Source of the DNA: Candidatus Hydrogenedentota bacterium
Lineage (GTDB): Bacteria; Hydrogenedentota; Hydrogenedentia; Hydrogenedentales; SLHB01
Length of the DNA: 64,000 bases
Assembly (NCBI GenBank): GCA_016215105.1
Contig: JACRLJ010000015.1
Location: forward strand, 1,438-65,437
Reading direction: 5' to 3'
The notes under the pieces are model-generated. The model was not told the DNA's origin. It ran no database searches and saw nothing but the letters and a program-made list of their open reading frames with translations. The position numbers were made by a program, and so were the translations under genes. This document shows positions 6,449-63,739 of this stretch, piece by piece. The stretch's first letter is position 1, and each line of letters begins with the position of its first letter.

Positions 6449-6530
6449 GGGCCAACGATATTCAATTCCCGCGCAAGATGTCGCGCGACGCCAAGTCTCA
6501 GTTCAGGCACGTTCGCGGTCAACTGCTTGA

Positions 6531-6656
6531 GGAGTTCGGCCGGAAAGTCGGTTAATTGACGCGGCGCGGCCAGAAAGCATCTGTAAGTTGTTTAACACCG
6601 GCGCTCTCTCTTGCCGGGTCTTGGTAAAAGGAGGCTTTCTGGCCGCGCCTCTAGAC
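6531..6656. repeat. Dispersed intergenic repeat family A, long form (copy A1).
   Basis: About 80% identical to 17653..17778. Shares ...GCGGCGCGGCCAGAAAGCAYYTGTAAGT...CTGGCCGCGCCTCTARA. It has an internal inverted repeat GGCCAGAAAGC/GCTTTCTGGCC. Confidence 0.7.
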
Positions 6657-6863
6657 CAGATCGGGTCAAGCCCACGCTCCCTGATTAGGCGTTCCAGCTC
6701 GTTCCGCCGGATGGTTTCGGACGAAGCCCTTGACATGGCTCTGACGTCTCGCATGTGTTTTTCAGCCCCCCTCCTTGAAGTACTCGAGTTTGCGGACGAT
6801 CACATAGTGACCATATAGCGCACGCCGGCTTGATTGAGCCCGCGCGCGAATAGTTTGAGCAGG

Positions 6864-7016
6864 CTACGTTCGGGCATACAGGAAGATCTCGCGGACCGCG
6901 TCATGGACTTGGTCGTCTGTCCAGCCGGGATGTTGCTTGCGCAACCAGGCGGTCTTAATGGCCCACGCGGTCTCATAGAGATCTTGCGAGGTCTTGAGTC
7001 TTTGTGCGGGAGTCAT
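6864..7016 (-). CDS. Possible small protein of about 50 aa, hypothetical.
   Basis: The C-terminal half of ORF 6864..7154 (MTPAQRLKTSQDLYETAWAIKTAWLRKQHPGWTDDQVHDAVREIFLYART) has high GC3 and a non-degenerate composition. There is no homology call and the start is uncertain. Confidence 0.3.
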   Translation of the reverse strand: MTPAQRLKTSQDLYETAWAIKTAWLRKQHPGWTDDQVHDAVREIFLYART

Positions 7017-7215
7017 GGCCTTGATAGTCCGGAGGTATTCCTCGGTCCATCCGTAGGTGTCTTCTGATTCCACGATTCTTCTCGCACCCTGTCCGGTTGA
7101 CGCTTTGGTTTGAGTACTTCCCTGTGGGTCGCATTTAGTATAGTGAGTCTCCACGGACTTTCAAAATGGCGGAAGTTCACGCAGCTGGTAATGCTCATGG
7201 TAGAAGGAGCTTGAG

Positions 7216-8601: not shown

Positions 8602-9687
8602 ATGACCTTTCGTGAGCTGAATCTCCGCATCTTCCGCCGCGAGCCTGTTGACCAGGTTCTGTGGCAGCCGCGCATCGAGCATTGGTATAGCATCAATAAG
8701 CGCGACGGGACGCTTCCCGAGCGGTACCGCGATATGACCATGCTCGAGCTGTTCGACGACCTCGATTGCTCGGTACGGGGATACTGGGCATTCAACGACG
8801 CGCAACGGTTCGAGGATTCGGAAGACGTTACCGCCGAGACGCGCGATGAGGGACATCTGGTTACTACGACAATACGCACGCCGGTTGGCGACCTCGTTCG
8901 CATTGAAGAGCGCACCACGGATTCCCATTACACTCGCAAGTACCCGGTCACGACGCCCGACGACATGCGCGTGATGGAGTGGATCATGGCTCGCCGGCAG
9001 GTCAGCTTCGATTGGACACGCTATGAGGAGGCCTGCACGCTCATCGGAGATCGGGGCGCGCCGACGATATTCATTCCGCGCGTAAACCTTATGCGGATCT
9101 ACATCGAGTTCATGGGATTCGAAAACGGTATCGAGGCGCTGTACGAGCTTCCGAAGGAGACCGAGCATTTGATCGCGGCCATCAATGAAAGCGACGAGGC
9201 CCTGCTGGACATGCTGTGCGCGTGCCCGATTGAGATCATCAATTTCGGCGACAACGTGCATCAGGCCATGTGCCCGCCACCGCTGTTCGAGAAATACGTG
9301 ATGCCGCAGTACCAGCGCCGCAACGAACGCTTGCGCGCCGCGGGGAAGAAGACCTACCCGCATTGGGACGGCGACTGCGGCCAGTTGCTGCCCTACGCGC
9401 AGGACTGCGGATTTGACGGCATCGAGGCTATCACGCCGGTTCCCCAGGGCGATGTGACGCTGGAACAGGTTCGCGACGGGTTCGGGGATCGCATCTTGTT
9501 GGACGGCATACCCTGCACGGACTTCCTGTTCGACACGCCGGAGGAGAGTTTGATCGAGAACACGCGGAAGTGCATCGAGTACTTTCATCCGCGCCTTGTA
9601 CTTGGCATTTCGGACGAGATTTCACCGATTGGCGACATCGAGCGCGTGCGGATGGTGAGCGCGATCGTGGCGGAATACAACGGCTGA
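8602..9687 (+). CDS. Uroporphyrinogen-decarboxylase (URO-D) family protein (methyltransferase-like).
   Basis: Length and C-terminal region (DGDCGQLLPYAQDCGFDGIEAITP) resemble the URO-D/MtaA-like fold. No signal peptide. Confidence 0.7.
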   Translation: MTFRELNLRIFRREPVDQVLWQPRIEHWYSINKRDGTLPERYRDMTMLELFDDLDCSVRGYWAFNDAQRFEDSEDVTAETRDEGHLVTTTIRTPVGDLVRIEERTTDSHYTRKYPVTTPDDMRVMEWIMARRQVSFDWTRYEEACTLIGDRGAPTIFIPRVNLMRIYIEFMGFENGIEALYELPKETEHLIAAINESDEALLDMLCACPIEIINFGDNVHQAMCPPPLFEKYVMPQYQRRNERLRAAGKKTYPHWDGDCGQLLPYAQDCGFDGIEAITPVPQGDVTLEQVRDGFGDRILLDGIPCTDFLFDTPEESLIENTRKCIEYFHPRLVLGISDEISPIGDIERVRMVSAIVAEYNG

Positions 9688-9705
9688 GCGGGTGCGACGA
9701 ATCTA

Positions 9706-9744
9706 GGAATCCGGCCGGAAAGTCGGCTCATTGACGCGGCGCGG
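9706..9744. repeat. Repeat family A, short form (copy A2), directly abutting a family B half-copy.
   Basis: GGAATCCGGCCGGAAAGTCGGCTCATTGACGCGGCGCGG. Lies in the convergent intergenic region between 9687 and 9875. Confidence 0.7.
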
Positions 9745-9752
9745 GGCTGTCG

Positions 9753-9794
9753 TACGTTGGCAGGAGATTCTTCGCTGCCGCTCAGAATGACACG
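9753..9794. repeat. Repeat family B, right-arm half copy (B1).
   Basis: TACGTTGGCAGGAGATTCTTCGCTGCCGCTCAGAATGACACG matches the right arm of the full copies at 30361..30475 and 55658..55773. Confidence 0.75.
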
Positions 9795-9874
9795 TTGCGC
9801 AGGTTTTCCAGAAAGGCGGAGAACGGCCTTGGCTGATAGGTCCTCAACAGCAGAACTGGTGGATTGGTTCGGTC

Positions 9875-15604: not shown

Positions 15605-15923
15605 CACTACAACGCAAATCTCTCTAGGAGCCGTTGCGCAATCGGCTCATCTGGACATCTCCCACGAGAGCGCAGCGCTATTCAGGACGAAACATCACCG
15701 CGGAGCACGGGGGTATGCTGCGCCCCGCTGGGGCTGTCCGATGGGTTGCGCTTTGGTCCGGGGGTTCCCTGCCGGTCACCCCCGGCTACTTCCCTGTCGT
15801 CCCTTCGGGACTTGGCTCTTGAGATCTCGTGTCCTATTCAGCATTTGAGAAATCGCCGCCACCCCGGGGGGACTGAATTCGAAATCCTGGACATCGGCCA
15901 ATCAACCTAGCGTTGTAGTATTA

Positions 15924-15963
15924 GGAATCCGGCCAAAGAGTCAGCTTTATGACGCGGCGCGGC
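15924..15963. repeat. Repeat family A, short form (A3).
   Basis: GGAATCCGGCCAAAGAGTCAGCTTTATGACGCGGCGCGG in a convergent intergenic region. Confidence 0.65.
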
Positions 15964-16052
15964 GGTGTTCTGGCGAGGGAGACGTCACACGCGCCGTGGC
16001 TGACGCGCCGCGACACAGTATCTGCCGTTGGAGAGTCTCGAGCGCGCTCGAC

Positions 16053-17301: not shown

Positions 17302-17652
17302 GCCAATCCTCCGCTCTCAATGCCGTACAGGAAGGATTTCGAGGAAGGCCGGGCGCGGCTGGCGCGCCTCCAACTTCCCAAACCGCCGCTTCCTGCAATA
17401 CAACACACACGCGCTGACTTCACGACGCCACCGGCGTAGCCACAGAGCAACACTTTTCACACTCAAAGCCGTACGCGCCTGCCCCAGGTACCTATCTGGA
17501 CTGCGGAAGCGTCAGTCCCCAGACTAGCAACAGCGGAATTATGCCACAGCGCTGCAGTATTCCGCAAGTAATTTTTGAGCGTCGACTCCAACAATACGGA
17601 CAAATATCTCAGATTGCGTAAAATCACGCAGTCGCGTCCAGTTCAATGCCTA

Positions 17653-17778
17653 GGAATCCGGCCAGAAAGTTAGCATTATTGCGCGGCGCGGCCAGAAAGC
17701 ACTTGTAAGTCGTTCAATGCCATCGCTGGCTCGTAGGGACTCTTGCTATTCGGAAGCTTCCTGGCCGCGCCTCTAAAG
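17653..17778. repeat. Repeat family A, long form (A4).
   Basis: GGAATCCGGCCAGAAAGTTAGC...GCGCGGCGCGGCCAGAAAGCACTTGTAAGT...CTGGCCGCGCCTCTAAAG. It pairs with copy 6531..6656 and sits in a divergent intergenic region. Confidence 0.7.
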
Positions 17779-18188
17779 AACCCAATTTCGGCCGTTGGCG
17801 CGTTGGAGGACGATCTAGCTCCTTCCAGGTCAAGCGTCTGTAACGAGCGCCGTATTCGCCATTCAGGTGAATTCAGGATGAATGCGTTTCGGTAACGGTT
17901 GGGCGCGTTCAGGGGCCCCACATTGCCGACCGCGGAATGCGGGCGCGCCGGGAACCGTCGAGCTATCTGGTCCCAAGTATCCCATTGCTCCCATACCTCC
18001 CATCGTACGCCCGCACACCCTAAACAAACACCTGACATGTATAGAGGGATCTACGCGAATCCGGGTCGAGGAAAACCGTGTTTAAGTGACCGGTGGACCG
18101 TGGCGCTCCATCGGTCCGATGATGGGCGTCCGGCCCGGAAAACTCTGGCCGGAGTTGCCCGAGACTAAGATCAGGGAGTGATGAGACT

Positions 18189-19184
18189 ATGCGCAGGACT
18201 TTTTTGCTGGTCGCTGTGAACGCGTTCATTTTGACGCTGTTCGCCGGAGAGGTGATCGCGGCCGGCCAGAACTACGACCCGCTGGCGATTTCCGGCGCTA
18301 CCGCGCCGGAAGTAATCGACTTGACCGTTCACGACACGAAGCGCGCACGCGACATCCCGATCCGCGTCTATTTGCCCGCCGGGAAATCCCCGGCGCCGGT
18401 CATCCTGTTCAGTCACGGCCTGGGAGGTTCGCGTGAGGGCAATGCCTATACGGGCAAGCATTGGGCAGCGCGCGGATATGTTGTGGTCGCGATGCAGCAT
18501 CCCGGCAGCGACACATCCGTTTGGCGCGACGCGCCGGTTACCCAACGCATGGCGGCGATGCGCAAAGCTGCGAATGGGGAGAACTTCATGCTGCGCGTGA
18601 AAGATGTGCCTGCGGTGCTTGACCAGCTCGAGCGGTGGAACAAATCCGGCGTTCCGGCGCTGACGGGCCGGATGGACCTGACGCGGGTCGGCATGTCCGG
18701 CCACTCGTTTGGCGCCGTAACCACGCAGGCGGTCAGCGGCCAAGTGGCCTTGCGCGGGGCCGTGTCGGTCACCGATCCGCGCATCAAAGCCGCCATCGCG
18801 TTCAGTCCGAGCCGGCCGAAGCTCGGCGGTCCGAAACAAGCGTTCGGTTCCGTACGCATTCCGTGGATGCTGATGACCGGCACCAAGGACGTCGCCCCCA
18901 TCGGAGACGCGGATGTGGCCTCGCGGCTTGCGGTGTTTCCCGCGCTTCCGCCGGGCGGCAAGTACGAAGTCGTGCTGTATAACGCGCAACACTCGGCCTT
19001 TTCCGATCGCGCGGCGCCGGGCGGCGCCGAAAAGCGCAATCCCAATCACCACCGGGCCATCCTCGCCCTGAGCACGGCCTTCTGGGACGCGTATCTCGGG
19101 CAGGACCCCATGGCGAAGGCATGGCTCGATGGAACTGGCCCCGCGTCCGTCCTGGAGAAAGACGACCAGTGGCAGAAGAAGTAG
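18189..19184 (+). CDS. Secreted alpha/beta hydrolase (PAF-acetylhydrolase/lipase/dienelactone-hydrolase-like).
   Basis: Signal peptide. GMSGHSFGA nucleophile elbow (GxSxG). Downstream Asp/His regions. Confidence 0.85.
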   Translation: MRRTFLLVAVNAFILTLFAGEVIAAGQNYDPLAISGATAPEVIDLTVHDTKRARDIPIRVYLPAGKSPAPVILFSHGLGGSREGNAYTGKHWAARGYVVVAMQHPGSDTSVWRDAPVTQRMAAMRKAANGENFMLRVKDVPAVLDQLERWNKSGVPALTGRMDLTRVGMSGHSFGAVTTQAVSGQVALRGAVSVTDPRIKAAIAFSPSRPKLGGPKQAFGSVRIPWMLMTGTKDVAPIGDADVASRLAVFPALPPGGKYEVVLYNAQHSAFSDRAAPGGAEKRNPNHHRAILALSTAFWDAYLGQDPMAKAWLDGTGPASVLEKDDQWQKK

Positions 19185-19200
19185 CTGACCTTCCGGTACG

Positions 19201-20532
19201 CTAGGATGGAAAACACTTTCCAAATGCGATGAGCAAGCGGGGCGAGCCTTTGATTCGGATTCGTCTGGTCAGCATTGCCCAAGCAAGGTTCTTCTCTTGA
19301 GCGAGGAACCCGAGCCACGTGGCGGCGTCAGCGGTAACGCGCAGGTTCGGGACGCCTATGTGCCCGCCGCTAACGCTAATCTGTTTGTTTCGGATGACGA
19401 TAGTTGCGGCGCGTTGCTCCTCGCCGGTGAACGTAAAATGATACGTGGCGTCGAGACCCTTGGATTGGTCGGGCTGGAAAGTCAGCGGAAGCCCTCGGAG
19501 AAATCCGTCCACCGTACGCGGACGCAGACTGGACCGGACGATCCGGGGGCGCTTGTTGGGAAATCTCTTGGCGACATGCTCCTCGGCGTCGGAGTTGCGG
19601 ACCACATAGACCGCCTCCTCTTTATCGGCAAGCGGTTTCACGTTTTCGCGCAAGTAGGCCTGTCGATTCGCGATGAACGGCGCGATTACGTCGTCGCCGG
19701 CAGGACACACCGCCATGCAGTACGCGGACTTGTAGCTAGCGCCGAACGAAAGGCTTTGCCACATTGACGCGGACTCGGAGTCGGTGACCCGTTTTCGGTA
19801 GTCGAATCGATTCCTGCTATCGGCAATGTGTTCGACCCAGTCGGTGAAGCCGCCCATGAACTCGCGGTAGTTGTGGGTGTAGCACGCGGAGAAATTGAAG
19901 TGGCCTTCCGGCGAGATCGCCCCCACAGGGCACGCGGCCACGCAGAGCTTGCACTCCAAACACGGGTTGTAGTCTATAGGCCGGCTGTACTCGGAAATCT
20001 CGGCGTCCACCAGAACTGTGCCGAGCAGGATGAAGTTGCCGAATTTTGGGTGGATGACGTTCCGGTGAATGCCCATCTTCCCGAGACCCGCGGCCACCGC
20101 TACGGGCTTGTGCGACACTACCCACGTTTTGCCCGGGAAGTTGTCCATCTCCATGGGGAAGCCCATCGCCGGATGGATCGCCCGTACGCCCCGCTCTTCG
20201 AGCGCGCGGATGATTCTTCGGCCTATATCGTCAACTTCGTCACCGGAGTGGTGGAATTCGAGATTGGCGACCGAGCGCGCGGGAGTGCGGATCGCCTCGG
20301 GGTTCATCCGGACGATGTAGCTGATCAGCGCCTTCGTCCGAGGATACGATCTGAGGATGTCGTCCCGCTGGTCATCGAGTTCCGGCCGCGTGATCTGCAC
20401 GAAGCCTACGTCATCGGCGCCGGACTCGAGGGCAAGACGCCGCAGCCATTGGGCGTCCAATACGTGGGGGCCGGTCTCATCGGTGTGACGTTCACGCAGA
20501 CGTTGCACGGTGGAATGTTCGGCAAGTTTCAT
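19201..20532 (-). CDS. 4Fe-4S ferredoxin-domain protein with a C-terminal SCP2-like domain (QueG/reductive-dehalogenase-like N-terminal region).
   Basis: CLECKLCVAACPVGAI and SAYCMAVCPAGDD cluster motifs. A C-terminal SCP2-like segment (RIRIKGSPRLLIAFGKCF). Confidence 0.7.
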   Translation of the reverse strand: MKLAEHSTVQRLRERHTDETGPHVLDAQWLRRLALESGADDVGFVQITRPELDDQRDDILRSYPRTKALISYIVRMNPEAIRTPARSVANLEFHHSGDEVDDIGRRIIRALEERGVRAIHPAMGFPMEMDNFPGKTWVVSHKPVAVAAGLGKMGIHRNVIHPKFGNFILLGTVLVDAEISEYSRPIDYNPCLECKLCVAACPVGAISPEGHFNFSACYTHNYREFMGGFTDWVEHIADSRNRFDYRKRVTDSESASMWQSLSFGASYKSAYCMAVCPAGDDVIAPFIANRQAYLRENVKPLADKEEAVYVVRNSDAEEHVAKRFPNKRPRIVRSSLRPRTVDGFLRGLPLTFQPDQSKGLDATYHFTFTGEEQRAATIVIRNKQISVSGGHIGVPNLRVTADAATWLGFLAQEKNLAWAMLTRRIRIKGSPRLLIAFGKCFPS

Positions 20533-20586
20533 TTCGAGGCTCCTTATATTGTATATACAAGTATCTAGTCAAGAAAAAAAGAGCGG

Positions 20587-26731: not shown

Positions 26732-27964
26732 GTGAACGTGATTCGACGAGGATTATTTGAAACCAAGACCGCTTGGGGTATCCGCGCGGCGTTGATTATT
26801 ATGGGTTGTACCCTGGCGGCAGGCGCGGCGCCGGCCGCTCCGATCAACTCGGGTGACACTGCATGGATGTTGACCTCGATGGCGCTGGTGTTGTTCATGA
26901 CGCTGCCGGGGCTGGCATTGTTCTATGGCGGGCTGGTTCGCAGCAAGAACGTGCTCTCCGGTGGTCTGGACCGGGTCTTTTGCCGCGGCATTACTCCGGA
27001 TAGCGTTTGGGAAACGCAAACGATTCCCGAATCGCTTTTCTTTTGCTATCAACTGACCTTCGCCATCATTACGCCGGGCCTGATCATTGGCGCGTTTGCC
27101 GAGCGCATGAAGTTCTCGGCGATGATGTGGTTCATGGGGCTGTGGACGACGATTGTGTATTCTCCCATTGCGCACATGGTGTGGGGCGGGCCGGGGGCGT
27201 TTCTGGCGGACGGACACGTGCTGGATTTCGCGGGCGGGATCGTGGTGCATCTCAACGCGGGTATTGCGGCGCTCGTCGCGGCCATCATGCTCGGGAAACG
27301 CCAGGGCTATCCACACATGGCCATGCCGCCGCACAGCTTGCCACTGACGATGATTGGCACGGGCATGCTGTGGGTAGGGTGGTTCGGTTTCAACGCGGGC
27401 AGCGCGGTGGCTGCGAATACGACGGCGGCCATGGCGATGCTGGTTACACACCTGGCGGCCGGGTTCGCGGCGCTGACCTGGATGTACATCGAGTGGTTCA
27501 AGAACGGCAAGCCGAGTGTGCTGGGCATCTGTACGGGCGCGGTGGCGGGGCTGGCCACGGTTACTCCCGCGTCGGGGTTTGTTGGCCCCATCGGCGGTAT
27601 CGTGATTGGTATCGCGGCGGCGATCGTGTGTTACTTTTTCGCCACGGCGGTCAAGCGAAAGTTTGGATACGACGACTCGCTCGACGCGTTCGGCGTACAC
27701 GGGGTCGGCGGCACGCTGGGAGTAATTCTTACGGCATTTTTCGCCAACAAGGCGCTCGGCGGCTATTCGCCGAACGACCTCGGAATATTCTCGCAGTTGA
27801 TGGCTCAACTGAAGGGGATCGTGGTTACGTTAGTCTGGTCGGGGCTAGTCTCGTACGTGATTCTTAAGGCGCTCGACGCGACCGTCGGACTTCGCGTTAG
27901 CGATCAGGAAGAAACGGAAGGGCTTGACCTCACGCAGCAGGACGAGCGCGCGTACGACCATTAG
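26732..27964 (+). CDS. amtB: Ammonium transporter (Amt family).
   Basis: GTG start after AAGAAGGAGAA. Signal peptide plus 11 TM segments. Amt motifs: DFAGGIVVHLNAGIAALV and GVHGVGGTLG. Confidence 0.92.
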   Translation: MNVIRRGLFETKTAWGIRAALIIMGCTLAAGAAPAAPINSGDTAWMLTSMALVLFMTLPGLALFYGGLVRSKNVLSGGLDRVFCRGITPDSVWETQTIPESLFFCYQLTFAIITPGLIIGAFAERMKFSAMMWFMGLWTTIVYSPIAHMVWGGPGAFLADGHVLDFAGGIVVHLNAGIAALVAAIMLGKRQGYPHMAMPPHSLPLTMIGTGMLWVGWFGFNAGSAVAANTTAAMAMLVTHLAAGFAALTWMYIEWFKNGKPSVLGICTGAVAGLATVTPASGFVGPIGGIVIGIAAAIVCYFFATAVKRKFGYDDSLDAFGVHGVGGTLGVILTAFFANKALGGYSPNDLGIFSQLMAQLKGIVVTLVWSGLVSYVILKALDATVGLRVSDQEETEGLDLTQQDERAYDH

Positions 27965-28051
27965 GCTGGGTTCCGGGACGTGATGAGACGGGATGGGAAC
28001 TAATGGGATGGGAATCAATGCGAAATCCGTCTCCGTGATTGGTAAGGGAAA

Positions 28052-28181
28052 GACGCCGAATTTCGCACAACACTGACACGCGAATTTCAGCATCAAGAAC
28101 AAGCGGGCGTCGAGCTTGTGTCGAGAGAGGGACAGACACCGAATTTCGCACAACACCGACGTGCGAATTTCGGTGTCAGTC
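28052..28181. repeat. Two related imperfect palindromes/direct repeats downstream of amtB.
   Basis: 28052..28094 reads GACGCCGAATTTCGCACAACACTGACACGCGAATTTCAGC. 28131..28181 reads GACAGACACCGAATTTCGCACAACACCGACGTGCGAATTTCGGTGTCAGTC, with a near-perfect 17-bp stem. Seen directly in the sequence. Confidence 0.6.
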
Positions 28182-28203
28182 CCAAGCGCGTAATGTAGGT
28201 TCG

Positions 28204-30073: not shown

Positions 30074-30360
30074 AATTCAGGAATTCCCTTTCACGTCCCT
30101 TGCGCGCTGGACGGGCGCGTCGAGCACAAAGCATAGCACACCGTTTCGCTGTGGTTCTTTTGTCATCTTGCAGTTGCGAAATGGCGCCAAGTCTGAGAAC
30201 CGCGCGGTTTCCCGGACTCGACCCCATCCCCGGACACTATGATACCCAAAGGCCCGCTTTGGTTTCCGGCGCGGAATTCGCAGACTCCAGAGGAGGCGAC
30301 GGTCTGCGAAAGGCACCCGAAATGAGCAAGGTTTTGCCAATCCGATACTGGACTACTAAC

Positions 30361-30475
30361 GTGTCATTCTGAGCGGTAGCGAAGAACCTAACCCGTGCAA
30401 GTTGAGCGCCCTGCTCCTTACGCACGGCTGTTGCACGTTGGCAGGAGATTCTTCGCTACCGCTCAGAATGACACG
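30361..30475. repeat. Repeat family B, full copy (B2) with about 27-bp terminal inverted repeats.
   Basis: GTGTCATTCTGAGCGGTAGCGAAGAA...TTCTTCGCTACCGCTCAGAATGACACG. About 85% identical overall to 55658..55773. Confidence 0.85.
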
Positions 30476-30533
30476 TTGTTGGGATCTATTCGGGAGGGTA
30501 CGGGGCAGGATTCCGCGGGCTTTTTGTACCCCC

Positions 30534-33426: not shown

Positions 33427-33545
33427 CGCGGGCCGAATCAGCAGCCGCTGGCAGAGCTGGCGGTATGAGGAATGTCCCTACGGCGGCCTGGCCGCGACGA
33501 TATAGTCTATGGTGTGGATGCTCGGATCGGATGCACGACTGCTAA

Positions 33546-33576
33546 CGTGCCATTCTGAACGGTAGTGAAGAATCTA
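33546..33576. repeat. Repeat family B, degenerate left arm (B3).
   Basis: GTGCCATTCTGAACGGTAGTGAAGAATCTAT versus GTGTCATTCTGAGCGGTAGCGAAGAATCTAA. Confidence 0.5.
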
Positions 33577-33650
33577 TCACCGGCAGAGCCGGAAGATGAC
33601 CTATGACTTAGCACGCGTGGTCACAACCAAGAGCGCCAGTGCATCGACGA

Positions 33651-36600
33651 CTACGGCGTAATTGAGCACTGCGGCAGGTCTTTCTTGAGGATTTTCAGGG
33701 CGCCTGCGGAGACCTTGGTCTGCGATAGGTTCAGCTTGCGCAATTGCGTGAATCCGGACAGGACCGTCGTAGCCTCGTCTGTCACGGGAGTTCCCGACAG
33801 GTTCAAATCGATCAGGTTGGGCAGCTCCTTCAGGGATTCCAGTCCCTTGCCGGTCACCTTTACGTTCAGCAACGTGAGGCGCTCGAGCTGGGTCAGCGCG
33901 GCCAACTCGGCCAAGCCCTCGTCCGTCACTTTGCTCGAGGCGATCTGCAGTTCGCGCAGGCCGGTGAGCTTCGTCAGGTTCCGCAGCTCCGCGTCGGTCG
34001 CAACTCTTCCCATCAGGATGATCGTGTTGAAGCTGTTCTTGTCCAGTGAACTGAGCGCGGTCAAATCCTGCGCGGCCTCGCTGTCGGTTTGGAGCTTGAG
34101 TTCGGCGCCTGGAGGCACTCCGACCTTACCCTGAGCGGGCCCGAGTTTGGCCCACTGCTGCGGGTCTACCGAACCCAAATTGCGGCTGAACAAGGTTCCG
34201 ACGGCTCCGCCGTCACCGAAATTCAGCAATCGCGGCGGCACGGCCAGTCCCGTGTCGCTGGTTCGCGACGAAATAACGGTCTTGACGGAGTCAGTCAACG
34301 TGCCGAACGAGAGGATCCCTTTGGATTCGAGGAACCACAACATGCCAACAAGAACTACCACTGCCGCCACCGCGAACAGCATCAACCGGGAGCGCTCGGG
34401 CGAATCCTGCGAGCCCTTCAAGCGGGTCCCAATTTTGGCCATCGCCGCGTCACGATCTTTCAGCGACTTCCGCAGCTTCTCGACTTCCGCGTGCGCCTTG
34501 GCCAGATCGCCGGACTTATCCCCTTGCGCTTTCCGCAGCGCATCGAGCTCCGCAGCCAGCTTTTGCTCGGATTCGGACGCGTCGCCCGTCTTCGCGCGCA
34601 ACGAGGCCAATTCCTCTTGGAGCGCCGAGACTTCCTCTTCACTTTGCGAGCTGTGCATGCTCGCCGCGACCATTGCTTCGTCGCGATCCGCCAGGGCCTT
34701 CTTGAGCGCCTCGACCTCGGCCTGCGCTTCGGACAGCGCGCCAGCCTTGTTGGATTGTTCGGCGCGCAACGCCGCAAGTTCCTCCGCCAGCTTCTGCTCG
34801 GACTCAGAGGCCTGACCTGTCTTCGCGCGAAGGCCTTCGAGTTCCTGGCGCAGCGCGTTCATGGCGTTTTCGCTGTCCGCGTTCCGCTGCGCCGCGGCGG
34901 ACATGGCTTCGTCGCGTTCCGTGAGCGATTTCTTCAGCGCCTCGACCTCCGCGCGGGCTTCGTCGAGGGCGCCGGATTTGTTGGTCTGCTCTTTACGCAG
35001 CGCTTCGAGTTCGGTTTCGAGCTGCCGCTCGGATTGAGACGCCTGGCCAGCCTTGGCCTGGATGGCCTCCAACTCTTTCTTGAGCGCCTCGACGGCCTTT
35101 TCGCTTTCGGAACTGCGTTGCGCGGCGGCGGACATGGCTTCGTCCCGCTCGCCGAGAGAGCGTTTGAGCGCCTCGACTTCCGCGCGGGCTTCGTCGAGCG
35201 CGCCGGACTTGTCGCTCTGTTCTTTGCGCAGCGCTTCGAGCTCGGAGACCAACTGCTGTTCCGATGTGGACGCCTGACTGGCTTGCCCGCGCAACGATTC
35301 GAGTTCTTGTTGCAGCGCGCTGACGGCCTTTTCACTTTCGGAACTGCGCTGGGTAGCGGCGGCCATGGCCTCGTCGCGTTCGCCCAAAGAATGTTTGAGC
35401 GCTTCGACTTCCGCCCGCGCCTCGGCCAGCGCGTTAGTCTTGTTGGTTTGTTCCGCGCGCAACGCCTCCAATTCACGCGCCAGTTCCTGTTCGGAAGTGG
35501 CCGCGCGCGCCGCGTTCGAGCGCAGAGCATCCAATTCTTGATTCAGCTTGGCCACCGCCGCCGCGCTCTCGGTGCTATTCTTGGTGGCCGTCGCCATGGC
35601 TTCGTCCCGCTCGCTTAGCGTACGCTTCAATGTGTCGAGTTCGGACTGCGCGCCGGTCAACTCGCCGGTCTTCGCCGCTTCGTTGGCTCGAATGGCGTCC
35701 AATTCGCGGGCCAATTGCTGTTCGGAAACCGAGGCCTGTTCCGCTTGCGCACGGATGGCGTCCAGTTCGCGTTTGAGCGCCGTAACGGCCTCGCCACTCT
35801 GCGAGCTGGCCGCGGCAACGGCCTTCTCGCGCTCGGCGAGGGTCTTCCGCAACGCGTCCAACTCGACCCGCGCGCCGGTTAGCGCCTCGGACTTATTGCT
35901 CTCCTTGGACCGCAACTCCTGCAGTTCCGCGGCCAGCGCTTTTTCGGATTTCGCGGCTTCGGCCGCTTTCACGCGCAGACCACCCAATTCGCGCTCCAGC
36001 GCGGCGACCGCTTTTTCGCGTTCGGCGTTGCGCTTGGCGGCTTCGGCGATGGCCACCTCGCGGTCGGACAAGGTGCGCTTCAACGCGTCCAACTCGGAGC
36101 GGGCGCCGGCCAGGGCCTCGGTCTTGCTGCCTTCCTTTTCCCGAAGCTCGCTTAACTGCGCGGCCAGGGCCTTCTCGGACGACGACGCGCGGTCGGCCTT
36201 GGTTCGCAGGGCCTCCAGCTCGGCTTGCAGCGCGGTAACCGCTTTCTCACGCTCGGCGTTTCGTTGCGCGGCCTCCGCGATGGCTTTCTCGCGCTCGGAA
36301 AGGGTTTGCTTCAACGATTCGAGTTCGGTTCGGGCGCCAGCCAGCGCTTCGGTCTTACTGTTCTCCTTGGCGCGCAACTCATTGAGCTGGGTGGTTAGGG
36401 CCTGTTCAGAGGAGGACGCGAGTTCGGCCTTTGCGCCGAGGGCGGCGACTTCCTGCTGCAAGGCGGTGACAGCCTTTTCGCGCTCGGCGCTGTGTTTGGC
36501 GGCTTCCGCGATGGCGGCCTCGCGCGACGACAGTGTCTTCTTGAGGAGTTCGAGCTCTGTTCGAGCGCCCGCCAACGCCTCGGTCTTGTTGCCTTCCTTT

Positions 36601-37772
36601 TCGCGGAGCTGCTGAAGCTCGGCCGTGAGGGCTTTTTCAGAGGTCGCAGCGCGATCCGCCTTGGCGCGGATGGATTGAAGCTCGTTTTGAAGAGAGGCGA
36701 CCTCTTTTTCGCGTTCGGCGTTGCGCCGGGCCGCCTCGGCGATGGCCCCTTCACGGTCAGCCAGCGTGTGCTTGAGCGATTCCAACTCGGTTCGGGCGCC
36801 GGCCAAGGCTTCGGTCTTCGTGCTTTCCTTGGCGCGTATTTCCTTCAACTCCGCCTCGAGAGCTTGCTCAGACGACGCGGCGCGCTCGGCCTGTCCACGG
36901 ATGGATTCGAGTTCCTTTTGCAGCGCGGCAACGGCTTTCTCACGTTCCGCGTTTTGGCGCGCGGCTTCGGCAATGGCCATTTCGCGATCCACTAAGGTCT
37001 GCTTCAACGACTCGAGTTCGGAGCGCGCCCCCGACAACGCTTGGACTTGTTGGCTTTCCTTGGCGCGCAGGTCATTCAACTCGGCCGCCAGCGCCTGCTC
37101 GGATGATGACGCCTGTTCGGCGTTCTGGCGGACCTGTTCGAGTTCCTCGCGGAGAACCGCAAACGCTTTTTCCTTTTCAGCGGTCTGCTTGGCGGCCTCT
37201 TCGATAGCCTTCTCGCGCTCGGATAGTTCCTTTCGCAGCAGCTCCAATTCGGACTGCGCGCCTGATAGTGCTTGAAGCTGCTGGTCCTCTTTGGCCCGCA
37301 GTTCTTCGAGTTCACCGGAGAGGTCCTGCTCAGCGCCGGTCTTTTGCTGGGCTTTCGCGCGGAGCTCCTCGAGTTCCTTCTGGAGTGTTTGTACGGTGCG
37401 CCGCAACCCCGACCGGTCGATCTCGTCGGATTGCTTGAGTTTGAGCGAGGCCTTCAAGGCTTTCGCCTCGAGTTCCTGGGCGCCCAGCCAGGACTGGATT
37501 TCCTTGCCCTGCTCCGGGCTCATCCAGCCGCTCAGCGCGGTGGAATCCTTCCGAACCTGGCCGATCCGGTTCACGAGGGCGTCGCAGGCGGCTCCGGCGT
37601 CGTCCAGCAGGTCCAATGCCGCCAAACTCTGCGCCCGCATGTAGACAATACGGACGCTGTTCGGCAGCGCCTGATCCAATTCCTCCAACACAGCGAGCAC
37701 GTCCAGGTACTTTTTCCCCTGGAACAATCCCGCGATTTGCTCGTACTTTCGCTCGGTCTCTTCTGGGCTCAT
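33651..37772 (-). CDS. Giant (1373 aa) single-pass membrane protein. N-terminal TPR-like segment, about 13 tandem 77-aa coiled-coil repeats, a TM helix, and C-terminal leucine-rich repeats.
   Basis: Repeating unit ALAGARTELESLKQTLSEREKAIAEAAQRNAEREKAVTALQAELEALRTKADRASSSEKALAAQLSELREKEGSKTE. TM helix LMLFAVAAVVVLVGMLWFL. C-terminal LRRs (LTKLTGLRELQIASSKVTD..LTQLERLTLLNVKVT..LPNLIDLNLSGTPVTD..LRKLNLSQTKV). Shadow ORFs on both strands were rejected. Confidence 0.85.
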   Translation of the reverse strand: MSPEETERKYEQIAGLFQGKKYLDVLAVLEELDQALPNSVRIVYMRAQSLAALDLLDDAGAACDALVNRIGQVRKDSTALSGWMSPEQGKEIQSWLGAQELEAKALKASLKLKQSDEIDRSGLRRTVQTLQKELEELRAKAQQKTGAEQDLSGELEELRAKEDQQLQALSGAQSELELLRKELSEREKAIEEAAKQTAEKEKAFAVLREELEQVRQNAEQASSSEQALAAELNDLRAKESQQVQALSGARSELESLKQTLVDREMAIAEAARQNAEREKAVAALQKELESIRGQAERAASSEQALEAELKEIRAKESTKTEALAGARTELESLKHTLADREGAIAEAARRNAEREKEVASLQNELQSIRAKADRAATSEKALTAELQQLREKEGNKTEALAGARTELELLKKTLSSREAAIAEAAKHSAEREKAVTALQQEVAALGAKAELASSSEQALTTQLNELRAKENSKTEALAGARTELESLKQTLSEREKAIAEAAQRNAEREKAVTALQAELEALRTKADRASSSEKALAAQLSELREKEGSKTEALAGARSELDALKRTLSDREVAIAEAAKRNAEREKAVAALERELGGLRVKAAEAAKSEKALAAELQELRSKESNKSEALTGARVELDALRKTLAEREKAVAAASSQSGEAVTALKRELDAIRAQAEQASVSEQQLARELDAIRANEAAKTGELTGAQSELDTLKRTLSERDEAMATATKNSTESAAAVAKLNQELDALRSNAARAATSEQELARELEALRAEQTNKTNALAEARAEVEALKHSLGERDEAMAAATQRSSESEKAVSALQQELESLRGQASQASTSEQQLVSELEALRKEQSDKSGALDEARAEVEALKRSLGERDEAMSAAAQRSSESEKAVEALKKELEAIQAKAGQASQSERQLETELEALRKEQTNKSGALDEARAEVEALKKSLTERDEAMSAAAQRNADSENAMNALRQELEGLRAKTGQASESEQKLAEELAALRAEQSNKAGALSEAQAEVEALKKALADRDEAMVAASMHSSQSEEEVSALQEELASLRAKTGDASESEQKLAAELDALRKAQGDKSGDLAKAHAEVEKLRKSLKDRDAAMAKIGTRLKGSQDSPERSRLMLFAVAAVVVLVGMLWFLESKGILSFGTLTDSVKTVISSRTSDTGLAVPPRLLNFGDGGAVGTLFSRNLGSVDPQQWAKLGPAQGKVGVPPGAELKLQTDSEAAQDLTALSSLDKNSFNTIILMGRVATDAELRNLTKLTGLRELQIASSKVTDEGLAELAALTQLERLTLLNVKVTGKGLESLKELPNLIDLNLSGTPVTDEATTVLSGFTQLRKLNLSQTKVSAGALKILKKDLPQCSITP
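34530..37330 (-). repeat. Intragenic tandem repeat, period about 231 bp (77 codons), about 12-13 units, encoding coiled-coil heptads.
   Basis: Periodicity is visible in the protein translation and in recurring DNA strings such as CTTGAGCGCCTCGACCTCCGCGCGGGCTTCGTCGAG. Confidence 0.85.
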
Positions 37773-39515: not shown

Positions 39516-39541
39516 CGCGCCGCCGATCGTGAATACGGCTG

Positions 39542-39582
39542 GGAATCCGGCCGAGGAGTCGGCGTTCTGGCCGCGCCTCTAA
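39542..39582. repeat. Repeat family A, collapsed short copy (A5) overlapping the GH20 stop codon.
   Basis: GGAATCCGGCCGAGGAGTCGGCGTTCTGGCCGCGCCTCTAA contains both family A termini. Confidence 0.65.
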
Positions 39583-41363
39583 TTCGCCTTCAGCAGGGCG
39601 AGCAAATTTTCCATCGCGCCCGCGCTCTCTTTAAGCCCGCCTGACCGGTTCCGGGCAAGCCATAGCTGGCGGTATTGCGGGATGATGGGGGCCAATTCCG
39701 CCGCGAGGCGGCTGCGCACATCGCGTGGGAGTGCGGAGGTAGCGACTCCACCGGCTTTTGCGCGCGCGATGCCCAGGTGGCACGCGAACCGCGCGAGGTT
39801 TGCGTCCACGGCAAATTCGTCGCGAATAAGTTGCGCGTCGGAGGTCTTCATTCGCGCGTTTGGCAACCGCGCCATGACTTCGTCGACGTAGGCCAGCGTC
39901 TCCTCCATGTCCTTCGCCGACAGCGTTTTCAGAAAGGACTTGGAGAACGGCTTTTCCGTGCAGTGCAGAAGCAGACCGTAGAAGGTCGTGTTGTTACCGG
40001 GAGTGATGCCGGTTTTTTGGTAGGCGTTGCCGAGGTCGTACGCCAACTTGCCCATGACACCCGCTTCGTCTTCAAATGCGTAGGCGTCGAGGATGCGAGG
40101 TATATCCGCGCCAGCGTTCGTCTGCACGCACCAACTGACCGCCGCACCGTAGGCGAAGCCAAGATACGAAATGGGCAGGCACTGCCAATGGCCGCCGTCG
40201 CCCCAGTCGGTGATCAGGTACCCGATTGCGCCATTGGCCAAACCGTTCTCGCCAGCATTGCGGAGGTTGGCGACCGCGTTGTCGGTTCGGCCTACGAGTG
40301 AATTCCAGCTCGAAGTGCCAGGCACCACGTAGTAGGAGATTCCTGAACTCGCGAAGATTTTCCCATGTTCAAGGAAAGGATGTTTGGCCTCGTAGCCCCA
40401 CTCCATGGCGACCACGTCCTTGGGCAGTTCGGGGATCAGCTCCTTGTGGTTCATGATGATGACGCAGTCCGGGTCCACGGGACACAGGTCGCCTCCCCCG
40501 CCGGGCATTTCGCCGAGGTGTTTGTACTGTGGATGTTGCAGCCAGCGGCCCATGTGTCCAAACGAATTTTGATTGGGAACCAGCTCGATATAGCGCTCGC
40601 GGCAATACTTATCCAACTCCTGGATCTGATGGGCCGTCATGGGAGAGGCGTCCTGCCATACCGTGGGGTGGTTGCGATACGAGAAGGTGTGCTCGGTGTA
40701 CAGTTGCAGCTGGTTGAGCTTCCAACTGGCGAACTTGTCCACAAGCGCGTAGAGCGTTTCCATTTCGGGGACTTTGTCGCGCGCGACGTCGAGCATCACG
40801 CCGCGATTGGGAAAGTCGGGCCAGTCCACGACGTGTGCGAGCGGCAGCACCCCGCTGGCGCGCGCCTGTTGAGCAATCTGACGTATCGTCTGGGCGGCGT
40901 AGAACACTCCGGCTTCATCATGGGCGGTGATGCGAACACCGCTGGGGCCGATCGCGAGGTCATATCCCTGCGCGTGAGGCGCTGCCGCGGCGTCCACCTT
41001 GACCGAGGCCTGAGGAGCCGCCTTGTCCGCGCGGGAAGGCAGACTCTGCAGCGCGCCGAGCACAAAGCGCCGGATTTTCTCCTGCTGTTCACTCGATAGA
41101 CCGTTCCCGTCAACAGCGACATCGCCGGGGGCCAATTCGAAGGCCGGCTGCGGCGTATTGATATCGGCTTGGCGCGGCGCTGGAAGAAGGGGCCAGTCCA
41201 GGCGCTGTCCCGGCGCTACCGCCGGCGCGGCCTTATGCGACTTCTGCGGCTTGGCGTGCGTCGCGGATCGATCGGGGGCATGTTGCGGTCCGGAAGCACA
41301 CCCGGCCATTAGGAAAAGCGCCGCAAGAGACGGTAGAACGACGCCCAGTTGGTTTATACGCAT
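39579..41363 (-). CDS. Glycoside hydrolase family 20 beta-N-acetylhexosaminidase-like lipoprotein.
   Basis: Lipobox LFLMAGC. GH20 domain-2 and catalytic-start motifs (GYDLAIGPSGVRITAHDEAGVFYAAQTIRQI; VVDWPDFPNRGVMLDVARD). Confidence 0.8.
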   Translation of the reverse strand: MRINQLGVVLPSLAALFLMAGCASGPQHAPDRSATHAKPQKSHKAAPAVAPGQRLDWPLLPAPRQADINTPQPAFELAPGDVAVDGNGLSSEQQEKIRRFVLGALQSLPSRADKAAPQASVKVDAAAAPHAQGYDLAIGPSGVRITAHDEAGVFYAAQTIRQIAQQARASGVLPLAHVVDWPDFPNRGVMLDVARDKVPEMETLYALVDKFASWKLNQLQLYTEHTFSYRNHPTVWQDASPMTAHQIQELDKYCRERYIELVPNQNSFGHMGRWLQHPQYKHLGEMPGGGGDLCPVDPDCVIIMNHKELIPELPKDVVAMEWGYEAKHPFLEHGKIFASSGISYYVVPGTSSWNSLVGRTDNAVANLRNAGENGLANGAIGYLITDWGDGGHWQCLPISYLGFAYGAAVSWCVQTNAGADIPRILDAYAFEDEAGVMGKLAYDLGNAYQKTGITPGNNTTFYGLLLHCTEKPFSKSFLKTLSAKDMEETLAYVDEVMARLPNARMKTSDAQLIRDEFAVDANLARFACHLGIARAKAGGVATSALPRDVRSRLAAELAPIIPQYRQLWLARNRSGGLKESAGAMENLLALLKAN

Positions 41364-52194: not shown

Positions 52195-52660
52195 GGCATG
52201 ATCCTCCCTTTTTGAGATTACTGAAAACCCCGTAAAGTGAACTATTAGTTTGTCCATTCACTACCCACTGGCCGTAATGTTACCCCCCCCCCGATTTTGT
52301 CAAGGACTTTTTTCATCGCGAACTTTTTCGTCGCGCAGGTCCAATATGGACCTCGCACTACTGGTGGATAGCTTCAGTACATGACGCGCGTCCCGTGCCA
52401 GGCTGCGGGAAGCGCAGGGAGAGAATTGACGGACACGCTATCAGGGAGTAGTGAGTGGCGGGGATCAGTAGTACGGTGAGTACGGCAGTCGCTATGGAAC
52501 CGAGATGTTGCGCGAATGACACCGGTGGACTTGCCTAACTGGGCTCCTCCCGAGTAGGTTGGATCAATTTCCGTTTGTGCCACGGCCCACGCGGCGGGGC
52601 ATAGTCTCGCGCTCTTAACCCGCGCATACGAAGCGCCGCGCCTATTGTGCGCGGTTGTCA

Positions 52661-52703
52661 CACGTTAGCGGCAGATTCTTCGCTGGCGCTCAGAATGACG
52701 CGT
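52661..52703. repeat. Repeat family B, right-arm half copy (B4).
   Basis: CACGTTAGCGGCAGATTCTTCGCTGGCGCTCAGAATGACGCG. Confidence 0.65.
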
Positions 52704-52794
52704 TGACCGCAGTATCTCCGGTTGGTAAGCGTTGGTTCGTTTGGAGTCCTTTGCTTTCAATCGGTTCCGCCGGCGCTTGCTTATTAGACTCGCA

Positions 52795-55505: not shown

Positions 55506-55657
55506 GCTTCGCTGAGACAAAGATCGTATTATCATCGCCGTTCCTGGACCGGTTTCAGGAACGGCGATTTTGGTCAGCAAGAACCGGCAGAGCCGGATTT
55601 TTGGGGAAGGCCCCTAAGTGGGGCTTACGTTCTCTAATGGGATGCGCTACTGCCAAC

Positions 55658-55773
55658 GTGTCATTCTGAGCGGTTGCGAAGAATCTAACCCGTACACGCT
55701 GAGCGCTCTGCTTATAGCACGCAGACTATTGCACGGTGGCAGGAGATTCTTCGCTACCGCTCAGAATGACACG
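55658..55773. repeat. Repeat family B, full copy (B5).
   Basis: GTGTCATTCTGAGCGGTTGCGAAGAATCT...GGCAGGAGATTCTTCGCTACCGCTCAGAATGACACG. Confidence 0.85.
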
Positions 55774-55874
55774 TTGCGCGGACCATGCGCGAAAGTGCCG
55801 GAAGGGCGAAACCGGTAGATTCGCCATGATTCGGGAATGCGGAGCCCAAACGTCACGGCCATGGAGGGGTTGGT

Positions 55875-63361: not shown

Positions 63362-63739
63362 TTAGATTCTGTACGGAACGCGGATACCATTCCATTCAGA
63401 GTTGAAGTCCTTGGTATTGCGCGAGACAAGCACCGCGTCGTTTGTTTGCGCGGTCGCCCAGATGATAGCGTCGGGCAGGCGTAGATGATGAGCACGGCGC
63501 AATCCTACGGCTGCTTCCGCGACTGTCAAGTCAAGCGAGATGATTTCGAAATGCGTTTCAAGAAAGTCGCGCAATTCGGAGTCGTCACCCTGCGCGCCGA
63601 CCAAGATCTCCATCCACGTAATGCGGCTGATAAATACACGCTCGTAACGGACGTATTCGTCGTCGGCTTGTGACAGACCGTTCAGCGCATCTATGACAAT
63701 GTTCGTGTCAAAAACGGCGATCACGCCCGCAGGTCCCAC
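63362..63739 (-). CDS. vapC: PIN-domain toxin (VapC-like).
   Basis: VFDTNIVIDAL N-terminal acidic motif. 125 aa. Conserved D...E...D...D spacing. Confidence 0.8.
   Translation of the reverse strand: MGPAGVIAVFDTNIVIDALNGLSQADDEYVRYERVFISRITWMEILVGAQGDDSELRDFLETHFEIISLDLTVAEAAVGLRRAHHLRLPDAIIWATAQTNDAVLVSRNTKDFNSEWNGIRVPYRI

Follow-up and report, generated by a model that had tools for sequence, protein, structure and literature searches.

What are the short sequences that recur between the genes of this uncultured Hydrogenedentes bacterium, and how might they have come to be there? In the 64-kb window (the whole stretch of 64,000 nucleotides that was analysed), one set of such repeats, referred to here as family A, is present in five copies: two long forms of 125 nt, two left modules (M1) of 41 nt and one mini form of 42 nt. 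These are real and fairly ordinary short hairpin-forming DNA repeats scattered between genes; the remains of a miniature mobile element are the most likely explanation, in preference to a gene or a known RNA. The adenosylhomocysteinase of the window is 100% identical to an NCBI protein of Candidatus Hydrogenedentes, in line with a MAG of that group as the source. The genes among which they lie are partly of housekeeping character (Ddl, DapF, PurN, DHODH, AdoHcyase, Amt) and partly devoted to polysaccharide degradation (GH2, GH9, GH20, fucosidase).

Five copies and their genomic surroundings

Each copy is intergenic, reads on the plus strand and has flanks unrelated to those of the others.

6529..6653, plus strand: long form, with M1 at 6529-6569, the 5' arm at 6563-6578, the 3' arm at 6634-6649 and the end TCTA
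17651..17775, plus strand: long form, with M1 at 17651-17691, the 5' arm at 17685-17700, the 3' arm at 17756-17771 and the end TCTA
9704..9744, plus strand: left module M1, TAGGAATCCGGCC-N18-CGCGGCGCGG, in the core slot of a family B hairpin
15922..15962, plus strand: solitary M1, recovered by repeat grouping, nhmmer and the M1 pattern; flanks without family B arms
39540..39581, plus strand: mini form, the left 22 nt joined to the right 18-21 nt, with both termini kept

The copies are 68-81% identical to one another. When the window was scanned for the M1 pattern GGAATCCGGCC-N18-CGCGGCGCGG, in which 21 bases are specified and up to 3 mismatches were allowed, the four M1 copies and one intragenic match with 3 mismatches were returned, against a chance expectation, obtained from shuffles, of 0.02 matches. 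The 11-mer arm CGGCCAGAAAG (at most 1 mismatch) gave 10 matches where 1.6 were expected, 8 of the 10 being located inside family A, and nhmmer profiles built from the copies recovered exactly these five places and no others in the 64 kb. The sequence-only reading had listed five copies of a dispersed intergenic repeat in long and short forms; repeat grouping and nhmmer place all of them where they had been reported, with boundaries shifted by 2-3 nt, and their similarity, far above chance between unrelated flanks, shows the repeat to be genuine in its long, short and mini forms. The same reading had named a duplicated segment that includes flanking genes as another possible source of the similarity. 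This was looked at as well. Between the two long forms, flanks of 200 nt agree at 16-24% of positions, the level of random sequences, and segmental duplication is therefore ruled out.

According to a gene map based on codon usage, all five copies are situated in the non-coding DNA, which constitutes 17% of the window. The map also bears out the earlier remark that four of the five lie between convergent genes, a type of arrangement that accounts for 22% of all spacers (P about 0.01). The copy at 6529 occupies the convergent spacer 6449-6863 and that at 15922 the convergent spacer 15605-16052, while the copy at 17651 is found in a divergent spacer of 887 nt (17302-18188), a position that had not been pointed out before; that all copies share the plus strand, and that a third imperfect arm is present at the left end (see below), are likewise additions to the first description.

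One copy had been said to overlap the stop codon of the GH20 gene, and this proved to be the right end of the mini form, whose terminal CTA is the TAG stop codon (39579-39581) of that minus-strand gene (39579..41363). In alignments the GH20 protein and its homologues end together at the C-terminus (…LLALLKAN), which indicates that the gene was not truncated by the mini copy, and with the inferred pre-insertion sequence at 39540, ..GGC-TA-ATTCG.., the gene would have the same TAG stop codon. Judging from these comparisons, the insertion appears to be harmless, ending exactly at the native stop codon. As to the origin of the mini form, internal deletion of a long form, proposed previously, is one possibility consistent with the retention of both termini.

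A coding role of the repeats was considered and rejected, as the open reading frames across the long forms (83 aa and 120 aa) have negative coding scores. Beside the copy at 6529 there is a gene of antitoxin type, related to Rv0078B (6864-7154), and downstream of it an open reading frame (6503..6754) with a good ribosome-binding site enters the repeat and scores as non-coding. The repeat could have split a toxin gene next to this antitoxin gene; this idea was also abandoned, the open reading frame restored by excision of the 6529 copy having 60-61 aa, a poor codon usage and no family match in Pfam or NCBIfam. A gene for a PIN-domain protein (63362-63739) lies at the end of the window.

Several repeats of other kinds were encountered in the window. 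Periodic repeats of 9 nt, ATGGGANNN and TCCCATNNN, were returned as an inverted pair at 884-916 and 17971-18003. The first lies inside a minus-strand gene that leaves the window at its start, where it would encode a PIxPIPPI-like stretch (a 615-aa partial product of this gene is present in Logan contig L056), and the second in the non-coding spacer upstream of the gene 18189..19184. Ten tandem repeats of 231 nt, 60-75% identical, occupy 34621-37221 within a 1373-aa open reading frame (33651..37772) that has Pfam matches of coiled-coil type and C-terminal leucine-rich repeats. A pair of 61-nt direct repeats (28045-28105 and 28128-28188; 80% identical) is located just downstream of the ammonium transporter gene (26732..27964).

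Anatomy, folding and ends of family A

Every copy begins with (T)AGGAATCCGGCC, the lead being CTAG, TTAG, CTGG or TGAG and followed by GAATCC. The left module M1, present as 41 nt in four copies, ends with CGCGGCGCGG; 13 nt at its start and 11 nt at its end are nearly invariant, and the 17 nt in its centre about half conserved. It is predicted to fold, after the conserved YTAG lead, into a bulged 6-bp stem (CCGGCC/GGCGCGG) around the variable loop. Both left-only copies, at 9704 and 15922, stop at the same base, after GCGCGG, and this common endpoint argues that M1 is a discrete unit rather than a result of random truncation.

In the long forms, M1 is joined to a REPIN-like doublet composed of two inverted 16-nt arms and a poorly conserved 55-nt spacer with a hairpin of its own. 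The internal inverted repeat noticed in the first reading is thus present, and is longer than stated there: the arms GGCGCGGCCAGAAAGC and GCTTTCTGGCCGCGCC form a stem of 16 bp, fully paired at 6529 and interrupted by a single A.C mismatch at 17651, which encloses the 55-nt loop and is followed by the terminal TCTA. The small hairpin of the loop is CCGGC/GCCGG in the copy at 6529 and GCCA/TGGC in the other. Over the hairpin module the two long forms are 77% identical without gaps. The long hairpin is predicted on either strand, with RNA or DNA parameters, and the copy at 6529 has fold z-scores of -4.8 as DNA and -3.05 as plus-strand RNA. A reading as a DGR or a CRISPR locus was rejected, as no reverse transcriptase or cas gene was found, and the differences that separate the long forms, 18 transitions against 17 transversions, are not adenine-specific.

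Conservation is distributed unevenly between the two long forms, with arms and termini matching at 17/18 to 19/20 positions (about 95%) and loop segments at 8/17, 14/20 and 22/37 (47-70%). Strong preservation of stems but not of loops could point to selection at the RNA level, the repeats acting as hairpins in 3' untranslated regions that protect the mRNAs of convergent genes or bring about their termination, or the long form being a small RNA. Such a function would be compatible with a mobile origin, the mode of spread being secondary to it. The location of four copies between convergent genes, at a distance of 17-81 nt (318 nt in one case) from a preceding plus-strand stop codon, agrees with this proposal, as do G.U-compatible changes in the GCCGG-AAAG-TCGGC hairpin (G.T in two copies, A-T in the mini form) and the lack of a predicted T-tract terminator in the spacers that bear the copies. 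Nevertheless, we consider it improbable. The stems are invariant rather than covarying, and hence offer no covariation by which a selected structure could be supported or opposed; among the five copies a single one has a significant fold z-score, and one copy resides in a divergent promoter region. Rfam 15 gave no match at gathering thresholds, and none on any family A copy at E values up to 5, and the family is absent from the related genomes that were searched. A role as an intrinsic terminator was rejected separately, there being no T-tract after any copy and no terminator-like site at the copies, though the organism does use canonical T-tract terminators elsewhere in the window (for example, 55536-55603). 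A weak Rfam match to the Acido-Lenti-1 RNA at 15772-15812, about 110 nt upstream of the copy at 15922, had 21.6 bits against a gathering threshold of 37 (E = 1.3) and probably arose by chance.

The ends of the element call for separate consideration. A third, degenerate copy of the arm in direct orientation, CGGCCRGAAAG, is present at the left end, which makes the two ends of the element imperfect inverted repeats. The left end, GGAATCCGGCCAGAAAG, and the right end, read as its reverse complement GAGGCGCGGCCAGAAAG, have 11 inner nt in common (CGGCCAGAAAG, present in inverted orientation) but differ in the outermost 5-6 nt, the outermost hexamers being GGAATC and GAGGCG. Asymmetry of this sort is as expected for an element with distinct left and right ends. 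The dinucleotide TA is found at both ends of the copy at 17651, the flanks being GA/TA at 6529 and TG/TA at 39540; a TA fixed at the ends of family A is not distinguishable from the sequence of the element itself.

These properties make a serious rival of a classical MITE, that is, a deletion derivative of an insertion sequence with a DDE transposase, either IS630/Tc1-like with a TA target or of the IS5 group with a YTAR target. Such an element would have moved as double-stranded DNA by means of its imperfect terminal inverted repeats and duplicated TA on insertion, and the parent insertion sequence would end in GGAATCCGGCC.../...GGCCGCGCCTC with TA duplications. The near-terminal 11 nt inverted at the two ends speak for this possibility, and so do TA on both sides at 17651 (in the other two complete copies, the right flank is TA and the left flank GA or TG), the size of 42-125 nt, the existence of long, short and mini variants, the last consisting of exactly the two termini, and the pre-insertion site at 39540, from which the same GH20 stop codon results. 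On the other hand, the inversion does not extend to the outermost 6 nt of the ends, the two copies reduced to the left module end at the same internal position, unlike products of random truncation, and no insertion sequence is present in the window. The orientation bias described below, 8/8, is not expected for MITEs of the DDE type either. Taken with these objections, a MITE origin seems to us possible, if somewhat unlikely.

The composite at 9704 and family B

A second family of hairpin repeats, family B, meets family A at one place. The sequence-only reading saw at 9706-9794 a family A copy that directly abuts a family B arm, and suggested a shared insertion preference or nested insertion. 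Alignment of 9664-9805 to the family B copies leads to a different description, in which M1 takes the core slot of a complete family B hairpin.

9683..9704, plus strand: decayed family B left arm, CTGAGCGGGTGCGACGAATCT (local alignment with a score of 32, which none of 500 shuffles reached)
9745..9797, plus strand: family B linker (9745-9764) and right arm (9765-9797) (score 84, reached by 0/500 shuffles)
30357-30478, 55654-55776, 52616-52705 and 33543-33600 of the window, 20460-20560 of the Hydrogenedentes locus L052, and L041-L049: family B hairpin elements

The decayed left arm CTGAGCGGGTGCGACGAATCT matches the inner two-thirds of the family B left arm at 18/21 positions and contains the TGA stop codon (9685-9687) of the gene 8602..9687. 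Directly after M1 come the family B linker, GGCTGTCGTACGTTGGCAGG, and the right arm, and the predicted fold pairs the decayed left arm with 9765-9797 around M1. The core that family B elements carry themselves, TAACCCGYGC...GCRCGG, has the same slot, approximate length and TA...CGG boundaries as M1 at 9704. Similarity in sequence between M1 and the family B cores is marginal (P 0.02-0.6), and we therefore claim positional equivalence and not homology. The apparent fusion of A and B at 9704 is, by these alignments, a module swap, and since M1 can take the core slot of a hairpin with unrelated arms, the A/B system is modular. The composite is reproduced in an independently assembled Logan contig (L007, run SRR12113407). 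Local alignment against shuffles found no family B arms beside the other four family A copies; to the left of 6529 there was a weak hint of such an arm, with a score reached by 9/500 shuffles.

The family B arm itself has a much broader distribution. Exact matches to its pattern, GTCATTCTGAGCG-NNN-GCGAAGAATCT, are present in 9 IMG/VR contigs whose GC contents differ greatly, and a second Hydrogenedentes MAG has a version with 3 substitutions. The arm is predicted to fold into an AUUCU/AGAAU stem with a tandem G.A pair, GC/GC and, mostly, a GNNA loop, and one compensatory change, G-C to A-T, is seen at 33549. The cores also display a compensatory change in the stem (CCGTGC/GCACGG versus CCGCGCA/TGCGCGG). 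The arm had no match in Rfam, and it may represent a widespread uncatalogued motif. Two canonical T-tract terminators (55536-55603) follow the adenosylhomocysteinase gene, and the 13-mer hairpin of the second one, CCGGCAGAGCCGG, recurs exactly at 33580-33592, the latter copy being situated inside a family-B-derived element.

Relatives, mode of spread and comparison with known repeats

Family A was also sought outside the window. Scans with the strict M1 pattern of one-genome-per-species GTDB and of JGI metagenome contigs returned only chance matches in GC-rich genomes; these contig sets did not return the window itself, and the scans are accordingly uninformative on the copy number in the source genome. 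The right-end pattern had 25 matches in viral contigs, none of which was family-A-like by nhmmer, and blastn against plasmids found nothing for either A or B. Six-frame translations of both long forms gave nothing at E values up to 10 among 5.8 billion proteins, and a literature search for the repeat strings met unrelated primers only. No copy of family A was present in five other Hydrogenedentes loci (L050-L055; about 100-107 kb), whose adenosylhomocysteinases are 83-84% identical and two of which come from one organism, nor in a locus with a GH2 of 55% identity (L014) or a contig with a GH2 of 77% identity (L013). The latter GH2 is the closest relative of a flanking gene, and its locus is not syntenic. 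One of the Hydrogenedentes loci, L052, has no family A and one hairpin of B type. Since family A is missing from these relatives, and B is found in L052 and in nine IMG/VR contigs, family A looks lineage-restricted and the family B arm widespread, as far as the available sequences tell.

Hairpin repeats of different kinds were seen in other Hydrogenedentes genomes (L051, 9853-9935; L050, 13034-13296). Among them is a palindrome with 37-nt arms just upstream of the adenosylhomocysteinase gene and a repeat that starts with CTCTAATCCGCG and has 52-nt arms placed 159 nt apart. Lineage-specific hairpin elements thus look common in the phylum.

Sequencing data offered one further glimpse of family A. 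Logan contig L056 (SRR12113407_134421) reproduces the left half of the copy at 6529 and ends at 6578, exactly where the conserved 5' arm gives way to the variable loop. This end could be a branch of the assembly graph at the repeat, or a drop in coverage at the hairpin, but it is a weak hint, to which we give little weight because other contigs of SRR12113407 end inside genes. All three Logan contigs (L007, L015, L056) are short, and together they add no more than 213 nt beyond the window.

No transposase, RAYT, TnpA or integrase was found by Pfam among the 50 proteins encoded in the 64 kb. This bears on the notion that the repeats are binding sites for a protein or recombination sites, similar to integron attC, of Xer type or recognised by a nucleoid protein. 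Their single common orientation and their form, an imperfect palindrome of attC-like length, would suit such sites, but we regard this reading as very improbable. The window encodes no integrase or recombinase; the intervening genes are large, of mixed orientation and of housekeeping or glycoside-hydrolase type, and do not resemble cassettes; and the ends, GGAATCC and GCGCCTCTA, carry no RYYYAAC/GTTRRRY core sites.

A further property is the orientation of the repeats. All independent A and B elements (8/8; five of family A and three other family B cores) read on the plus strand, for which the two-sided P is 0.008, the eight elements lying in a single replichore segment. The third-codon GC skew, read on the plus strand, is +0.08 for plus-strand genes and +0.15 to +0.18 for minus-strand genes. 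Being positive for genes of both orientations, it is a signature of replication and marks the plus strand as the leading strand, and the mixed orientation of genes in the window means that transcription fails to explain the strand bias. Such a bias is to be expected of single-stranded DNA elements that target the lagging-strand template, according to a study of IS200/IS605-derived elements (PMC6006769).

The common ancestry of copies in unrelated flanks, the conserved arms with variable spacers and the solitary units, together with the modular recombination with family B, the enrichment in extragenic 3'-3' positions and the patchy distribution, point to elements of REP/REPIN-BIME or MITE kind. 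Between these, asymmetric ends, the conserved YTAG lead before a hairpin and the leading-strand orientation favour a mechanism based on single-stranded DNA and a Y1/HUH enzyme. Our preferred, and still tentative, interpretation, to which we would assign a probability of about 0.45, is that family A consists of lineage-restricted, small, non-coding, hairpin-forming dispersed repeats representing a non-autonomous element of the REP/REPIN-BIME kind. The copies would have been spread in trans by an enzyme encoded outside the window, which would act on single-stranded DNA and recognise hairpins, a Y1/HUH transposase of RAYT or IS200/IS605 type being the leading candidate. Insertion might occur next to a YTA(R) site, and sites of this sort are common at stop codons in this genome of 60% GC. 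Insertions would survive mainly in 3'-3' spacers, where they should do the least harm, and the solitary M1 units and the mini form may be immobile or decaying derivatives. No empty site, polymorphism or excision product was seen for family A, and it is from the features listed above that we infer mobility.

The resemblance to REP/REPIN elements can be traced in some detail. REPINs consist of conserved inverted REPs with a variable spacer that still forms a hairpin, and are accompanied by decaying singlets (PMC3337134); REPs and REPINs are mobilised by RAYT transposases in Pseudomonas fluorescens SBW25 and E. coli (PMC3337134, PMC3116915). Family A shares with them extragenic location, the character of imperfect palindromes, an inverted doublet that forms a long hairpin, conserved inverted arms around a variable, hairpin-forming spacer, a total length of about 90-125 nt, solitary units similar to decaying remnants, and a conserved tetranucleotide 5' of a GC-rich hairpin. 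It differs in that its lead, which would have an analogous role, is YTAG/YTAA instead of the GTAG of proteobacterial REPs, in that its 16-nt arms are not palindromic whereas classical REPs are, and in the presence of the additional asymmetric M1 and the strictly one-sided orientation. Hallmarks of a RAYT system are a single-copy gene for RAYT (a Y1 HUH protein) flanked by repeats and tens to hundreds of repeat copies per genome; five copies of family A and no RAYT were seen in the 64 kb of the window, and the host belongs to Hydrogenedentota, in which, to our knowledge, no REP/RAYT system has been described. The unusual lead and the non-palindromic arms count against the REP/REPIN assignment, as does the small number of copies, which at 68-81% identity are old for an active element; moreover, a cut-and-paste MITE would account equally well for the terminal TA dinucleotides and for a mini form in which both termini are kept. 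The origin from a REP/RAYT or IS200/IS605 system suggested in the earlier reading remains the best lead and is strengthened by the 8/8 strand bias, although no gene of such a system lies in the 64 kb.

Other classes of bacterial repeats resemble family A in part. BIMEs of E. coli and BOX elements of Streptococcus pneumoniae are mosaic, modular intergenic repeats. Interchangeable modules (here M1, A arms, B arms, core and linker) and the pairing of the outer modules as a stem-loop are common to them and to the elements described here; there is no sequence similarity, however, and the rules of composition in our case derive from nine elements only. ERIC/IRU, Correia (NEMIS) and RUP elements are bacterial MITEs with duplication of a TA target, and are often co-transcribed with neighbouring genes. 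They are also intergenic, TA-flanked imperfect palindromes of roughly 100-150 nt with long and internally deleted variants, but possess true terminal inverted repeats and are inserted in either orientation, in contrast to the asymmetric ends, left-only units and orientation bias of family A. With PATEs, palindrome-associated elements that are derived from IS200/IS605 and moved by Y1 transposition through TnpA, family A would have in common distinct ends with subterminal hairpins, an orientation tied to replication (for family A, in one replichore segment) and insertion beside a short defined sequence similar to the element's own right end (YTA versus CTA in family A). The window contains no TnpA or TnpB, and the copies of family A are much shorter than most PATEs.

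A still wider interpretation would unite both families in an undescribed modular system, whose core hairpin (a YTAR lead and a CCGNNC...GNNCGG stem) would occur alone, inside family B arms or beside family A arms. The fixed orientation relative to replication would then imply mobilisation of single-stranded DNA, with recognition of hairpins, in Hydrogenedentota, and the family B arm would be a widespread uncatalogued structured motif. We find this generalisation doubtful at present.

The class to which family A is ascribed is familiar, while the family and the host phylum are new. Family A introduces no new biological principle, and no long-standing question hinges on it. For the genome that carries them, the repeats serve as markers of gene ends, two stop codons (9685-9687 and 39579-39581) being located within them. 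Spurious open reading frames, such as 6503..6754 and 17676..18038, arise from them, and they may break assemblies, one Logan contig ending exactly at the arm/loop boundary at 6578. If confirmed genome-wide, these findings would provide a small and clean example of the exchange of modules between two repeat families, and would extend strand-biased hairpin repeats of REP/REPIN type to a candidate phylum known only from metagenomes.
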